Origin: a virus
Lineage: Duplodnaviria > Heunggongvirae > Uroviricota > Caudoviricetes
Virus record (IMG/VR): IMGVR_UViG_2695420478_000007
Length of the DNA stretch: 9,949 bases
Reading direction: 5' to 3' (one strand)
How positions within the stretch are numbered: the stretch's first letter is position 1; every line of letters begins with the position of its first letter. Made by a program: the position numbers and the translations under genes. Of the stretch, positions 2,062 to 9,811 are shown in pieces. The notes beneath the pieces are model-generated. The model was not told where the DNA came from, did not search any database, and saw only the letters and a list, made by a program, of their open reading frames with translations.

Positions 2062-2637
2062 CTACGGCAGTGCTGGCCATTCAATATCCGGTGCAGTTGA
2101 TGTATCAACACGGTTCAGCAACACCCGATACTTTTTCCAGGCTTCCAGCAACAAGGTTTCTTCCTCCGTTGCGATCTCCAGATCCACAGCATCCTGAAGC
2201 GGCGCTATATGCTCACTGGCTATCTGCATCAGGCTGTTTTTTGTTTCTTCCGCCTCCCGGATCCGGAACAGTTTTTCTGCTTCCGTATCCTTCACCCAGG
2301 CTGTGCCGTTCCACTTCTGATATTCCCCTCCCGGCGATAACCAGGTAACATTTTCCGGTAACGGACCGAGTTCAGAAATAAATAACGCGTCGCCGGAAGC
2401 CACGTCATAAACCGTTTTACCCCGATGATCTTCAACGAGATGCCACGATGCCTCATCACTGTTGAAAACAGCCACGAAGCCTGCCGGAATATCTGGCGGT
2501 GCAATATCGGTACTGTTTGCTGGCAGACCTGTATGAGGCGGAATATATGCGTCACCTTCACCAATAAATTCATTAGTTCCGGCCAGCAGATTATAAATTT
2601 TTATGGTCCGTGGTTGTTCACTCATTCTGAATGCCAT
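2062..2637 (-). CDS. tfaQ: Tail fibre assembly protein (Tfa chaperone), 191 aa
   Basis: Sequence is typical of lambdoid Tfa proteins ([18 protein letters not shown]...); its start overlaps the stop of the upstream tail-fibre fragment (TAATG coupling). Confidence 0.9.
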
Positions 2638-2945
2638 TACGCAAGCCTCACAATATAGTTAAATGCGATGTTTTTGACGGTGTTTTCCGCGTTACCAGCA
2701 GCGTTAACGGTGATGGTATGTCCATGTGAACCAATCGCAACGGAGTGCGTATGAGCACCAATACCGACAGTATGTGCGTGTGCACCTGCGCTTGCAGCAG
2801 TACCCGATACAGAGTGCGTATGAGCGCCTGCAGAAGAAGTGTTAACACTGTATTTAGAATAATCAGGTGATCCACTTCCCGGAGCACCACTGGAACCACC
2901 TGAAACAAATGTCATCGAATGGGTATGTGCACCGGCTGTCCCCAT
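2637..2945 (-). pseudogene. stfQ: C-terminal fragment of a side tail fibre protein (Stf), 102 codons, with repeated GAHTHS/GAHAHT His-x-His motifs; N-terminal portion absent
   Basis: Gly/Ser/His-rich repeats typical of phage tail-fibre tips; the frame begins at the junction with the J fragment; coupled to the downstream tfa. Confidence 0.8.
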
Positions 2946-4192
2946 GCATTTACCGCCCGGACTGTCAGCCTGTAATTTCCCAGCGCCAGCTGCGTGAAGC
3001 GATATGTGGTTTCCGTCGTCCGGGCCGTGCTGACCAACCGCTCACTGCCGTCGTCCGCTGCCACGGTCAGGCGAAGCATAAAGCTCACCCCCTTCACCAC
3101 CTTCGGCGTGTCCCAGCGCGCCAGCACCTGGTATTCCCCGCTGTCTGCGGTGGCTTCTGCGGTCAGGTGCTGAACTGCTGGCGGCGTGACACCATTCACC
3201 GTGCCGCTCTGGTCACCGTCAAAGTGCGCCCCGTTATCCACGATGGCTTCTTTCTCCGGTACATGCTGCACGGCAGTGATGGCATACGTACCGTCATCGT
3301 TCTCACGGATACTCACACAGCGGAACAGGCGCTGACGCAGCGTCGGCAGCTTCAGCCCCCACACGCTGTACTCGGCAACGCCGTCAGGAACCCGGCTCAC
3401 TTTCACCTTCACGCCGTCGGTGACGGACTGGACCTCCACGCTCACCGGATTACCCTGCCCGTCAACCAGGCTTATCAGCGTGGTGCCGGAGGATGGCAGC
3501 GTGATTTCACGGTCGAGCGTCAGTGTCCGCGTCTGGCTGTTCACCGCCAGCACGCGCCCGCCGATGCTGATCCCCGCATAGTCATCATCACAGATTTCAA
3601 TGACATCACCTGGTACATGGCGAAGCCCTTCGGCACCCACGCTGAAGTCCACGGTCTGCGTTTCCAGCAGTTCCGTTTTAATCAGCCACAGCCCGGCTCG
3701 GTGCGCCTGCCCCCGCCTGGTACAGCCAAAGGCATCCATCTTCGTGACGTTACGACCGTAACGGGCAATGGCCTGCGTGTCCTCCACAAGCTCTGTCGCC
3801 GTCTCCCAGCCGTTATCCGGGTCAATCCAGTTCACCTCAACGGCATTATGGCGGTCCTTCAGGGCGCTGAAGCTGTAGCGGAACGGCGCGCCATCATCCG
3901 GCATCACCACATTACTGCGGTTATAGGTCCACACCTTATCTGATGGTCGGTCCTGCACGAACGTCAGCGTCTGCCCGTTCCATACCGGCATACAGCGCAT
4001 CGCCGAGCAGAAATCACTGAGAACATCCCACGCCTTACGCTGTGTGGTCAGCCAGGCATTACAGGTGATGCGCGGCTCCGTGCCGCCAAAACCGTCCGGC
4101 ACCGACTGGTCGCAACACTGGCCGATGACATACAGCGCCCATTTATCCACATCTGCCGCACCAAGACGTTTACCCATGCCGTAGCGCGGGTG
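2912..4192 (-). pseudogene. Internal fragment of the lambda J-like tail tip / host specificity protein (about 420 codons of central region), lacking N- and C-termini
   Basis: Open frame 2912-4279 contains ...GMGKRLGAADVDKWALYVIGQ...NAWGQ, recognised as the central portion of lambda J; homology begins near 4192 and ends near 2936, where the frame switches to the Stf C-terminus. Confidence 0.8.
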
Positions 4193-4427
4193 GCTGGAGA
4201 TCTGTCTCGCTGGCCTGCCGCAGTTCTTCAACTTCCCGGCGCAGCTTTTCGTTCTCAATTTCAGCATCCCTTTCGGCATACCATTTTATGACGGCGGCAG
4301 AATCATAAAGCACCTCATTACCCTTGCCACCGCCTCGCAGAACGGGCATTCCCTGTTCCTGCCAGTTCTGAATGGTACGGATACTCGCACCGAAAATGTC
4401 AGCCAGCTGCTTTTTGTTGACTTCCAT
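4170..4427 (-). pseudogene. nohQ: N-terminal fragment (about 79 aa) of the terminase small subunit Nu1 homolog, truncated by deletion fusion to the J fragment
   Basis: MEVNKKQLADIFGASIRTIQNWQEQGMPVLRGGGKGNEVLYDSAAVIKWYAERDAEIENEKLRREVEELRQASE matches lambda Nu1 N-terminus including its helix-turn-helix; the frame then diverges and stops; the ATG lies 190 nt from the first base of the cohesive end, as in lambda. Confidence 0.85.
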
Positions 4428-4650
4428 TGTTCATTCCACGGACAAAAACAGAGAAAGGAAACGACAAAGGCCAAAAAGCCCGCTTTCAGCACCTGTCGTT
4501 TCCTTTCTTTTCAGGGGGTATTTTAAATAAAAACATTAAGTTACGACGAAGAAGAACGGAAACACCTTAAACCGGAAAATTTTCATAAATAGCGAAAACC
4601 CGCGAGGTCGCCGCCCCGTAACCTGTCGGATCACCGGAAAGGACCCGTAA
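4428..4650 (-). other. cos: Lambda-type cos site: cosB region (4428-4604), 12-nt cohesive-end sequence (4605-4616, AGGTCGCCGCCC on +, GGGCGGCGACCT on -), and cosQ-side flank (4617-4650)
   Basis: The - strand reads ...CCGACAGGTTACG/GGGCGGCGACCTCGCGGGTTTTCGCTATTTATGAAAATTTTCCGGTTTAAGG..., matching the joined lambda right end and left end as I recall them. Confidence 0.8.
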
Positions 4651-6310: not shown

Positions 6311-6515
6311 TCATTTTCACTTTTTTAAATCCAACGACAGACGGCTGGCATTTAAGTATTGTGAAATATTATCAAATGTAATCATCATTGATTTACAAAA
6401 GATACATTTTGCCCCGAAAGGATTCATGTCAGAAACATCAAAAGATGATGTTCTATACTGGGAACCATGACAACACGGGCATCTAAAGTGAATATGGTTT
6501 GTAATATTGTCTACC

Positions 6516-6728
6516 TCAAAGCGCCACTACATGAACAGCGGCAGGACCTTTAGGTCCGTTCTCAATACCAAATTCAACTTCCTGATTCTCAGTTAATGTT
6601 TTGAAATCGTTGCTCTGAATTGCTGAGAAATGGACAAACACATCTTTGCTGCCATCTTTCGGCGTGATGAAACCAAAACCTTTTTCAGGGTTAAACCATT
6701 TCACTAAACCAGTCATTTTGTTAGACAT
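6516..6728 (-). CDS. cspI: Cold shock protein, CspA family (70 aa)
   Basis: [38 protein letters not shown]... carries the RNP1 (KGFGFI) and RNP2 (VFVHF) motifs; C-terminus and prophage position fit cspI. Confidence 0.9.
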
Positions 6729-6908
6729 AATTATTACCTTTTGAAGAAATTAGCCCTTGGGCAGAATGGTCCGAAAAAAAATATCAGAGAGAAAAACCAA
6801 CAAGGAAATCTCAAGAGGTACAAATAATAAAATTATAACAATGACTGCTTCAGATAAATTTGTAACAAACCAGAACACCATTAACGCATGATTAACCACC
6901 CATAGCAA
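6729..6908 (-). promoter_or_regulatory. cspI promoter and long 5' UTR: -35 TTGCTA (6903-6908), -10 GTTAAT (6880-6885), predicted start near 6872, leader about 145 nt
   Basis: The - strand motif GCGTTAATG...GGTTTG is also found upstream of cspB in this window and resembles the cspA promoter and 5' leader as I recall them. Confidence 0.5.
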
Positions 6909-7090: not shown

Positions 7091-8114
<1,024 letters not shown>

Positions 8115-8118
<4 letters not shown>

Positions 8119-8426
8119 AGATATTTATGATGAGGACGCTCGTGCTTATTGGCAGGATTTTCAATCTTAAAGGAGTACTGATGCTGCAGATAAGACTCAA
8201 CTTTTTCTGACAATTTTTCTGCTACTTCCAGGAAGACTTGCCGGACGCTCCTTCTGGCTGCTGCCTCATAAAACTCCAGCGCAGCTCCTTCAACACGGTC
8301 CATGGCGACATCCAGGTCAAAAATTTCACCGTCAAAGCGTTCTTTGTCCTGTAAGGCTACAGTTACCGTAACTTTATTCTCAAAATTACGGACTCCTTTC
8401 ACAACCAGTTCATAGTCTTGAGTCAT
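8115..8426 (-). CDS. ydfR: Hypothetical protein (103 aa), YdfR-like, located between holin and endolysin
   Basis: Open frame with start 4 nt after the holin stop and a stop overlapping the endolysin start; acidic protein with no recognisable motif. Confidence 0.8.
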
Positions 8427-8430
8427 TGGA

Positions 8431-8646
8431 TTACTCTCCTCTCGCAGCCTTACGCCTGTCTTCTTTAATCTTGAAATAAAGATTTGTCAGATACGTCAGC
8501 AGGCCAAAAACCAGGCTACCCAGCACACCGATTGCAGCCCACTGTGACGGAGTTACTTTATCGAGTAACTGCAATGCCCAGAAACCAGCATTACCCGCCG
8601 ATGTGCCATAGGCAACACCTGTTGTTAACTTATCCATTGATTTCAT
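8431..8646 (-). CDS. essQ: S21-type pinholin with dual-start motif MKSMDK (71-aa antiholin from 8646, 68-aa holin from 8637)
   Basis: [71 protein letters not shown]: two transmembrane segments and a charged C-terminus, like phage 21 S; the longer ORF start at 8721 is unlikely. Confidence 0.85.
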
Positions 8647-8865
8647 ATCCTCACCCCGATGTACACGGATGGTGCAATATGTTTGAAAAGATCGGAGTCT
8701 ACGGGGTAGTTTTGACAGCACACGTTGTTCTCAACGGCGCTAAAAAAACATACACATTAAAAATGTGGGTAATTATTTTGAAAGAAAGTCATATATAAAA
8801 TAATAATACGAGAAATGTTTTCATATTTAGTGTACTGTATACGGCCATTTATACAGGAAAAGCCT

Positions 8866-9036
8866 ATGTCAGAACGTAAAAACTCAAAATCACGCCGTAA
8901 TTATCTCGTTAAATGTTCCTGCCCAAACTGCACCCAAGAGTCAGAACACAGTTTTTCAAGAGTACAAAAAGGTGCCCTTTTGATCTGCCCTCATTGCAAC
9001 AAAGTATTCCAGACAAATCTTAAAGCTGTAGCCTGA
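8866..9036 (+). CDS. Small zinc-ribbon protein (56 aa) with two CxxC pairs (CPNC...CPHC); possibly one of the small proteins described in this prophage (ynfU?)
   Basis: ATG at 8866 with AGGAA 8 nt upstream; candidate promoter -35 TTGAAA (8778-8783), 17-bp spacer, -10 TAATAA (8801-8806); the gene name is an uncertain recollection. Confidence 0.6.
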   Translation: MSERKNSKSRRNYLVKCSCPNCTQESEHSFSRVQKGALLICPHCNKVFQTNLKAVA

Positions 9037-9120: not shown

Positions 9121-9399
9121 GATTGTGGTGCTTTTTGTGGGAGTCATCCACTTACGCACTTTGTTTTGCCATGCCAGCAGTTAGCTTCTGCTGTAAAACT
9201 ATTCATGCAGCAAACCTGCACTTCACCACAATGGTTAGCATACTTTTCCTGATTAAGATTTTGCCAAATATGCTAGCCATTGTTTCATGTATTGGACCTC
9301 CTTACTTTTTATTAAAGAGATCCAATATTCACTACTCTGTCCGTATCTCTACTCAGGCATCAGCCTTCTTCGTTATCGTATACAGACGAGCGATGAATT

Positions 9400-9615
9400 T
9401 TAATCAGTAATGATGACATTTGCTGCTGCAGGACCTTTAGCACCACTCTCTATAGAGAAGGTAACCTTTTGACCTTCAAATAAGGTTCGATAATTATCAT
9501 TCTGAATCGCAGAAAAATGCACAAACACATCTTTACTACCATCAACAGGAGAAATAAAGCCGAAACCTTTATCAGCGTTAAACCATTTTACTAAACCAGT
9601 CATTTTATTTGACAT
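9400..9615 (-). CDS. cspB: Cold shock protein, CspA family (71 aa)
   Basis: [38 protein letters not shown]... with RNP1 and RNP2 motifs; position upstream of the lysis cassette fits cspB. Confidence 0.9.
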
Positions 9616-9811
9616 TCTACATTCCTTAACTTGAGCCTTTCGGCATAAATGGTTTGCATAACAGAAACGACTTCGTACTTAATTGGAGAGACTCAAAGAA
9701 GGAATAAGTGAATAACACCTGAAATGAGAACTGCTTTAGTAAACTACTTCGTATATCGTCTGTTCTTCAAACCGACGCAATCATTAACGCATAGTTGAAC
9801 ATATGAAGCAA
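9616..9811 (-). promoter_or_regulatory. cspB promoter and long 5' UTR: -35 TTGCTT (9806-9811), 18-bp spacer, -10 GTTAAT (9783-9788), start near 9775 (GGTTTGAAGAACAGAC cold-box-like), leader about 160 nt with CCGAAAGGC motif
   Basis: Resembles the cspA promoter and leader (ACGGTTTGACGTACAGAC; CGCCGAAAGGC) as I recall them; AT-rich UP-like element upstream; mirrors the cspI upstream region. Confidence 0.5.

Follow-up and report, generated by a model that had tools for sequence, protein, structure and literature searches.

We propose, with moderate confidence, that YdfR is an accessory cytoplasmic protein made late in phage development, that host RNase E or RNA is the target of its conserved 72-residue domain, that its gene has settled opportunistically at permissive sites of the late operon, and that it is not a regulator of lysis. 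The accessory, not lysis-specific character of the protein is the part of this proposal that we hold more firmly than the whole, and the RNase E mechanism is the part that we hold less firmly. In the model, YdfR would be a small soluble protein of lambdoid phages of Enterobacterales, encoded late on one transcript with the lysis and morphogenesis genes. The genes of its family, DUF1327, fill a presence/absence ("moron-like") slot, which in E. coli phages lies behind the holin gene and makes use of the Shine-Dalgarno (SD) sequence embedded in that gene. In the Qin-type allele, a deletion has joined a longer ydfR frame to the 11 nt that immediately precede the ATG of the endolysin gene. The gene can then be pictured more clearly, as a 72-residue unit under selection from a family that is not tied to lysis genes, and with a 3' overlap that is a deletion scar.

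The window, that is, the whole 9,949-nt stretch of DNA analysed here, is a cryptic lambdoid E. coli prophage of the Qin type, with the genes in the order found in MG1655: pinQ, tfaQ, stfQ/nohA, ynfO, ydfO, gnsB, ynfN, cspI, rzpQ/rzoQ, rrrQ, ydfR, essQ, ynfU and cspB. The open reading frame that runs from 8426 to 8115 is ydfR (b1555) of the Qin cryptic prophage. Its product is identical to MG1655 YdfR at 103 of 103 residues (UniProt P76160 for the E. coli K-12 protein) and matches Pfam DUF1327 (PF07041) with 179.9 bits, against a cut-off of 25, over profile positions 1–93 of 93. The first-pass annotation had located the 103-aa frame correctly at 8115–8426, on what proves to be the minus strand (ATG at 8426–8424, TGA at 8117–8115), but the gene that it called unknown is the K-12 gene, catalogued across RefSeq under the label "YdfR family protein". 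As a feature ydfR is already known: it has been named, assigned to a Pfam family and studied in a first experimental paper. Its function is listed as unknown by Pfam, the protein falls in families of unknown function in PHROGs, and a 2024 survey of the y-ome still counts the gene as uncharacterised (PMC11551758). None of the NCBIfam models matches YdfR, and a sequence search of the PDB returned no real match. The possibility of a chance open reading frame was rejected on the DUF1327 score together with the dN/dS ratio over codons 1–72, which is 0.17–0.47.

The surrounding genes, whose coordinates are collected in the table, form a cassette of a phage-21-type holin and an R21-related endolysin with a putative SAR N-terminus. 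The holin EssQ has the MKSM dual-start motif and a hydrophobic segment that peaks at KD19 1.72, and its gene ends with TAA at 8433–8431. RrrQ matches the solved phage 21 lysozyme R21 (3hde, E 2e-16) and also RrrD (4zpu), aligning from residue 9; its N-terminus is Gly/Ala-rich and weakly hydrophobic (maximum KD19 1.67 at residue 9). The 3' end of ydfR reads ...TAT CTA TGA, and the rrrQ ATG lies within it as CT-ATG-A (8118–8116). The 4 nt between the holin stop and the ydfR start (8430–8427) and the ATGA shared by the ydfR stop and the endolysin start (8118–8115) had both been noticed at first pass, and both are confirmed. The co-expression deduced from them is likewise borne out, by a strong SD in the last holin codons and by a crude consensus scan of the minus strand from essQ to rzpQ, in which no promoter- or terminator-like site was seen. 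The description of the protein as acidic is apt only in a mild sense: the whole protein has a pI of 5.56 and a net charge of −4, with a pI of 4.6 for residues 1–72 and of 8.1 for the tail. The GC content is 0.436 in ydfR, 0.463 in essQ, 0.506 in rrrQ and 0.434 in the window.

Table. Features of the Qin-type lysis cassette around ydfR (positions in the window).
Feature	Positions	Strand	Basis or remark
essQ, phage-21-type (class II, pinholin-like) holin, 71 aa	8431..8646	minus	PF04971, E 4.4e-34; PHROG holin families; MG1655 annotation
ydfR Shine-Dalgarno sequence GAGAGGAGAG	8434..8443	minus	within the last essQ codons; anti-SD duplex −9.5 kcal/mol
Spacer between essQ stop and ydfR ATG, 4 nt, TCCA on the coding strand	8427..8430	minus	
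ydfR codons 1–72, conserved DUF1327 core, pI 4.6	8211..8426	minus	alignments, AF2 model, dN/dS, stand-alone homologues
ydfR codons 73–103 and stop, allele-specific tail (helix, then disorder)	8115..8210	minus	pLDDT <50 over residues 77–103
What is left of the conserved endolysin leader without SD, CATAAATATCT, now the last ydfR codons	8119..8129	minus	deletion junction at ~8124–8129
ATGA overlap of ydfR stop and rrrQ start	8115..8118	minus	also in the complete phage PhiR42_1
rrrQ, 177-aa SAR-type lysozyme, no Shine-Dalgarno sequence	7585..8118	minus	PF00959; anti-SD duplex +1.2 kcal/mol
rzpQ, Rz-like i-spanin (DUF2514), with a GTG start that overlaps the stop of rrrQ	7091..7588	minus	PF10721, E 8e-39; phrog_312; MG1655 annotation
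rzoQ, o-spanin lipoprotein, nested within rzpQ in a different frame	7141..7395	minus	LTSC lipobox; MG1655 rzoQ at the corresponding position

What is the functional unit of YdfR? In alignments across the family, conservation is limited to the first ~72 residues, with Y5, Y53 and E54 among the conserved positions, and the C-termini are mosaic, with proteins ranging in length from 72 to 287 aa. Stand-alone homologues of 72–76 aa that consist of the domain only are found in Sodalis, Pantoea, Cronobacter and uncultured Enterobacterales phages. The dN/dS ratios given above were obtained between alleles whose synonymous sites are near saturation. As judged from these sequence comparisons, codons 1–72 are under purifying selection and the ~72-residue domain is the functional unit of the protein, the rest being mosaic and dispensable. 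An AF2 model built on a 28-sequence alignment (a single-sequence model was too poor, with a pLDDT of 48) predicts antiparallel strands at residues 5–14, 18–27 and 34–43 packed on a long helix at residues 50–83, with a pLDDT of 72–89 over residues 1–70 and a disordered tail. This beta-beta-beta-alpha arrangement is a generic unit. YdfR has no hydrophobic segment (maximum KD19 0.67) and should therefore be soluble and cytoplasmic.

How could such a domain act? In a genomic two-hybrid screen with RNase G as the bait, Gopel et al. 2026 recovered ydfR codons 1–72 three times; the 1–72 fragment gave stronger signals with RNase E constructs, and full-length YdfR gave a signal only with Rne1-597 (PMC13232886). 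In the same study, FLAG-tagged Rne1-598 co-eluted with Strep-YdfR from cell extracts, and the Strep-YdfR eluate contained large amounts of DNase-resistant nucleic acid, although by the authors' own account the RNA might have been bound by a contaminant; because the co-purification lacked a nuclease-treated repeat, RNA could bridge YdfR and Rne1-598 (PMC13232886). The link between YdfR and RNase E comes from this one paper, and the small number of transcripts changed by YdfR overproduction in that study counts against it. The fragment published as interacting with RNase E has exactly the limits of the conserved domain found in our alignments, and since the domain was defined independently, the reported interaction is more likely to be meaningful. 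Given the reported association of the domain with the catalytic N-terminal half of RNase E, and of the protein with RNA, YdfR most likely modulates or targets host RNase E or RNA late in infection and does not control holin or endolysin, an assignment that we make with the lesser confidence stated at the outset. If the RNase E link holds, then Stx-converting and other lambdoid phages would gain a late-expressed handle on host RNA decay. We put forward only tentatively, as a possible though doubtful extension, that the DUF1327 domain is a portable module, binding both RNA and the catalytic half of RNase E, with which lambdoid phages would late in infection steer how their long late transcript is processed or degraded; such a module could act on the sense/antisense RNA overlap made by the small convergent gene that often accompanies the family. 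If true, this would add a new class to the phage modulators of RNase E and would account for the free placement of the gene in the late operon.

How free is that placement? In Qin, PhiR42_1, mEp460, 2H10, Evi, Stx2-86, BP-4795, PhiR12_2 and the loci L033 and L034, the DUF1327 gene starts 3–4 nt past the holin stop. This junction was found in 7 of the 7 alleles compared, and the offset between holin and DUF1327 was 8 nt (7 nt in PhiR12_2) in all 12 phage records common to both tblastn lists. Elsewhere the gene occupies other positions. For example, in loci L031 and L032 it lies behind a holin of the unrelated family PF16080; in ES18, Oslo and 29485 it lies between tail genes M and L, the ES18 protein gp24 matching Pfam DUF1327 with 30.7 bits (cut-off 25). 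Similarly, the Sodalis ligni copy is found just upstream of tail gene L, the Pantoea copy between Q and a lambda-type holin that is followed by a GH19 endolysin, and the Cronobacter copy after Rz and before the terminase genes. Locus L029 again has the gene in the M/L interval, L030 has it directly after the tape measure gene, and L024 and L028 have it before J. DUF1327 members thus occupy at least five late-operon sites besides the one behind the holin, some of them far from any lysis gene; they accompany three unrelated holin families, and at all sites compared the gene lies on the late-operon strand. Because related phages carry the gene at so many different sites, ydfR is probably not part of the lysis machinery. 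Of 18 loci, 13 have a convergent open reading frame behind the DUF1327 gene; one family of such partners, phrog_25324, accompanies DUF1327 at four different sites. A single universal partner, and with it a universal two-gene system, was rejected because the convergent frames fall into at least two recurrent families (phrog_25324 and phrog_2572) and several unrelated ones.

In E. coli phages, the position behind the holin has a consequence for translation. The ydfR SD forms the strongest anti-SD duplex in the operon (−9.5 kcal/mol). In the 933W-like phage VT2phi_272, which is without DUF1327, the same SD and 4-nt spacer lead into a 177-aa lysozyme (−8.5 kcal/mol), and in 434 an overlapping gene for a 165-aa endolysin uses the SD inside the holin gene (−7.1 kcal/mol). 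In DUF1327-bearing cassettes the endolysin has no SD, the anti-SD duplex being +0.6 to +1.2 kcal/mol in 7 of 7 cassettes, and it is preceded by a conserved leader ending in ...GATAAATCCTGATAAATATCC-ATG. Because the same holin-embedded SD drives the endolysin where DUF1327 is absent, the DUF1327 gene has taken over the endolysin's translation start site. We infer that this capture, together with the coupling to rrrQ in the Qin-type allele, probably shifts the amount of endolysin made relative to holin. The presence of DUF1327 goes along with a move of the holin-embedded SD from the endolysin to ydfR, which matters for studies of lysis timing and for lysis devices. The statement in the first-pass annotation that canonical cassettes have nothing between holin and endolysin holds for 434, cdtI and VT2phi_272, none of which has a DUF1327 gene at that place, but not in general: among ~438 phage records with a phage-21-type holin, ~100 (~23%) carry DUF1327 and ~77% are without it.

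Does YdfR set the time of lysis? We consider it unlikely that YdfR is a cytoplasmic lysis-timing modulator, either with its acidic domain placed on the basic C-terminal tail of the pinholin or as a restraint or chaperone of the SAR endolysin. The fixed distance of 3–4 nt behind the holin in every E. coli phage examined would suit such a role, and to that extent it weighs against the accessory reading; co-translation from the holin-embedded SD and the contrast between the domain pI of 4.6 and the basic cytoplasmic holin tail point in the same direction. The distant members of the family fit it poorly, since they are found in tail clusters, before the holin or after the spanins, and with other holin and endolysin types. 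Lysis regulators need not adjoin holins, as is the case for T4 rI and rIII. The same type of domain is, moreover, paired with two unrelated holin families (PF04971 and PF16080), the majority of phage records with this holin do without DUF1327, and the alleles are recombinant within the DUF1327 domain, with no co-variation with the holin seen. Across the family, a consistent association of DUF1327 with a cognate holin was not found. YdfR also showed no similarity to the known antiholins (holin isoform, T4 RI and RIII, P1 LydB), as it has no TM segment or signal peptide and its fold is unrelated. When YdfR alone was overproduced, in an experiment in which the holin was not expressed, there was no growth defect (PMC13232886). 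A further observation in favour of a lysis regulator, and one that counts against an accessory protein, is that the Keio ydfR deletion was among the envelope-leakiness hits of the genome-wide screen of Paradis-Bleau et al. 2014 (PMC3879167); essQ and rrrQ/ydfQ were not found in the supplementary files of that paper. Because K-12 shows practically no expression of the ydfR operon under standard conditions (PMC13232886), we infer that a simpler explanation of this phenotype is transcription of the SAR endolysin gene downstream from the kanamycin cassette.

Of the roles suggested at first pass, namely a lysis-timing modulator, an endolysin partner or a moron, the last fits best; a dedicated lysis role is unsupported, given the sites elsewhere and the many cassettes without the gene. 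A more specific form of the moron idea, in which ydfR, perhaps with the convergent small gene, is expressed from the prophage and benefits or defends the lysogen, for example by protecting it from superinfection or by altering host physiology, seems to us quite improbable. It would account for presence or absence at several late-operon sites, for the frequent convergent partner and the joint movement of phrog_25324 with DUF1327, and for the judgement of the ES18 annotators, who called gp24 and gp25 "possible morons" with predicted terminators for the two genes; the cluster has also been reported to be induced by cold stress, in expression data cited in PMC13232886. Yet the PADLOC defence models gave no match for YdfR, its longer relatives or the convergent partners, and there were almost no ydfR reads in K-12 under standard growth (PMC13232886). 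Nor is there a promoter-like site before ydfR, whose start depends on the 3' end of the holin gene; its base composition is that of its surroundings, and the Qin allele, which has no convergent partner, is kept in active phages all the same. A classical moron with its own promoter was rejected for the Qin allele on the same two grounds, the absence of a promoter-like site and the unremarkable base composition.

What is the origin of the overlap between ydfR and the endolysin gene, in which the first-pass annotation saw selection for ydfR to stay in the cassette? The distance between the two genes varies, from the ATGA overlap of the Qin type to 50–55 nt in BP-4795 and mEp460 and ~320–450 nt in 2H10, PhiR12_2, Evi and Stx2-86, the last three of which have a convergent open reading frame in the gap. 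In the six other alleles, then, the DUF1327 gene ends 50–450 nt short of the endolysin, and all alleles besides the Qin type keep the leader ending in ...CCTGATAAATATCC-ATG. A blastn comparison of Qin with locus L033, which encodes a 174-aa version, gave two blocks, 50–593 matching 2326–2870 and 598–1137 matching 3451–3990. Between these blocks 580 bp are absent from Qin, with the join at a CCTNAT microhomology; with this DNA Qin has lost the 3' half of the long gene version together with a convergent open reading frame of 93 aa and most of the leader. As a result of this deletion, the last four ydfR codons (H-K-Y-L) and the ATGA overlap are what remains of the endolysin leader. The tail shared with the 174-aa and 206-aa versions extends only up to ...ERPH, and the ydfR tail is a truncated remnant of a longer C-terminal region. 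On the alignments, then, the overlap is specific to the Qin-type allele (with PhiR42_1) and is a deletion scar, not a feature of the family, and selection to stay in the cassette is not what it records.

Coupling to rrrQ may contribute to endolysin synthesis in the Qin allele; it is not a general requirement, because the other alleles express an SD-less endolysin without a nearby upstream open reading frame. It is highly improbable that the Qin frame is only a translational spacer with little protein function, delivering ribosomes to the endolysin by termination and reinitiation at ATGA: rrrQ has no SD and shares its ATG with the ydfR stop, what is left of the tail is truncated and disordered, and YdfR overproduction had almost no phenotype, being non-toxic and changing few transcripts in RNA-seq (PMC13232886), but the endolysin is equally SD-less in the six alleles with the upstream frame ending 50–450 nt away, and the N-terminal domain is kept by purifying selection and is found elsewhere as a protein of its own.

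Of 5,426 complete E. coli genomes, 3,647 contain DNA similar to ydfR, at up to six copies per genome, and 1,789 have the Qin-type allele across 80% or more of its length. The DUF1327 family is small: a set of 5.8 billion proteins contains 267–282 of its clusters at 90% identity, and a set of 1.84 billion contains 92 of its representatives at 50% identity. A species-level scan of genomes with peptide patterns of the E. coli type yielded Escherichia and Shigella only, a result that understates the range of the family because of the patterns used. Two matches, in Veillonella and Bacillota MAGs, were near-identical to the E. coli sequence and probably represent mis-binned contigs. The complete phage genome PhiR42_1 has the identical S-YdfR-R arrangement, including the 4-nt overlap, so this arrangement is not confined to the cryptic Qin prophage.

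How does ydfR compare with systems that are already known? With respect to YdfR/DUF1327 of K-12 there is no difference: the gene in the window is the same gene, in the same Qin order. The closest comparison outside E. coli is with ES18 gp24 and the stand-alone proteins of 72–86 aa in Salmonella, Sodalis, Pantoea and Cronobacter prophages, which share the same ~72-aa domain, the late-operon strand and the presence/absence position. These proteins differ from YdfR in that they are without the C-terminal tail and have their genes in the tail-gene region, upstream of the holin gene or downstream of the spanin genes, and not between holin and endolysin; most of their loci have a convergent partner gene, which the Qin allele has lost.

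Small proteins co-expressed with the holin are known from other phages: the cytoplasmic antiholin RIII acts on the T4 holin, and S71 is the antiholin form of the phage 21 holin. RIII is, like YdfR, soluble and cytoplasmic; neither RIII nor S71 is homologous to DUF1327, which is not restricted to the neighbourhood of holins. Morons in Hendrix's definition are extra genes with their own promoter and terminator and a deviant base composition, and the classical lambdoid examples are lambda bor and lom and those of the HK97 type. ydfR is likewise an extra gene between genes that are adjacent in a related phage (VT2phi_272), but it is without a promoter or terminator of its own and without a compositional signature, and it depends instead on a holin-embedded SD and the late operon.

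Finally, phages encode several modulators of RNase E, namely T4 Srd, T7 gp0.7 and phiKZ Dip, and the host itself has RapZ, which binds the RNase E N-terminal domain. YdfR may act in a similar manner to RNase E binders such as T4 Srd and RapZ, but no relationship of sequence or fold was found between any of these four proteins and YdfR, and YdfR differs from the phage modulators in being expressed late rather than early and in that its reported association is possibly bridged by RNA. What T4 Srd and RapZ share with YdfR, as reported for the latter, is their partner: each associates with the N-terminal catalytic half of RNase E.

What precedes the endolysin gene in loci that carry a DUF1327 gene? 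None of the endolysin genes downstream of a DUF1327 gene has a Shine-Dalgarno sequence. The A/U-rich leader in front of each, ...GATAAATCCTGATAAATATCC-ATG, is conserved (window 8119-8138; likewise in compared loci L001-L006). Alleles with a long spacer also have a conserved element, GCCAGTG...CACTGGC, that can form a hairpin 5' of this leader.

DUF1327 genes are also found beside two families of partner genes. In four loci, a convergent phrog_25324 ORF of 98-128 aa lies 20-30 nt past a 72-aa DUF1327 gene, and the partners from phage Evi, Cronobacter and Pantoea are 58-85% identical to one another. The pair occupies four different late-operon sites: between holin and endolysin, after Rz, between Q and holin, and after the tape measure gene. 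The pair thereby acts like a mobile cassette of two genes. The second partner family, phrog_2572, is found beside DUF1327 in phage PhiR12_2, in the loci where DUF1327 follows a PF16080 holin (L031/L032), and in L033/L034, where L033 encodes a 174-aa DUF1327 version.

Eight database proteins (P0034, P0052, P0075, P0083, P0096, P0099, P0130 and P0183) combine a PF04971 holin domain with DUF1327 in a single chain. They may not be true fusions: a frameshift or a miscalled gene spanning the 4-nt gap between holin and ydfR could have joined the two domains. The ydfR sequences on two Firmicutes MAG contigs, L008 (Veillonella parvula) and L010 (Bacillota), share 84-99% identity with their E. coli counterpart, and both contigs are probably mis-binned E. 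coli prophage.

The window's lysis cassette is flanked by cspB and cspI, and the lysis genes of 2H10 and PhiR42_1, both active phages, likewise have cold-shock genes around them. This placement, together with the cspA thermoregulator matches, may have a bearing on the cold induction that has been reported for the cluster. The divergently oriented ynfU lies between cspB and essQ, and a terminator-like hairpin follows cspB.

Features of the window and of compared loci (L numbers)
Feature	Location	Strand	Remarks
cspA thermoregulator (Rfam)	window 9384-9776	-	full length, 158.8 bits; over cspB 5' region
cspA thermoregulator (Rfam)	window 6489-6874	-	full length, 112.8 bits; over cspI 5' region
Terminator-like hairpin	window 9118-9099	-	downstream of cspB
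ynfU	window 8815-9036	+	small zinc-ribbon protein; PF23499, E 6e-31
Single 455-aa ORF	window 2912-4279	-	separate stfQ and nohA annotated there in MG1655
IS009 (Rfam)	window 2096-2294	-	full length, 221.5 bits; inside 3' part of tfaQ (tail-fibre assembly gene)
DUF1327 + phrog_25324 pair	L003:2501-3040
DUF1327 + phrog_25324 pair	L022:1226-1765
DUF1327 + phrog_25324 pair	L020:4001-4545
DUF1327 + phrog_25324 pair	L030:4001-4634

Finally, the window differs from MG1655 (L036) in the tail-fibre/nohA region, at about 2640-4430. Between tfaQ and rzpQ the coordinate offset relative to MG1655 shifts by 309 bp, and one ORF stands where MG1655 has stfQ and nohA; the window is therefore part of a Qin variant distinct from that of MG1655.
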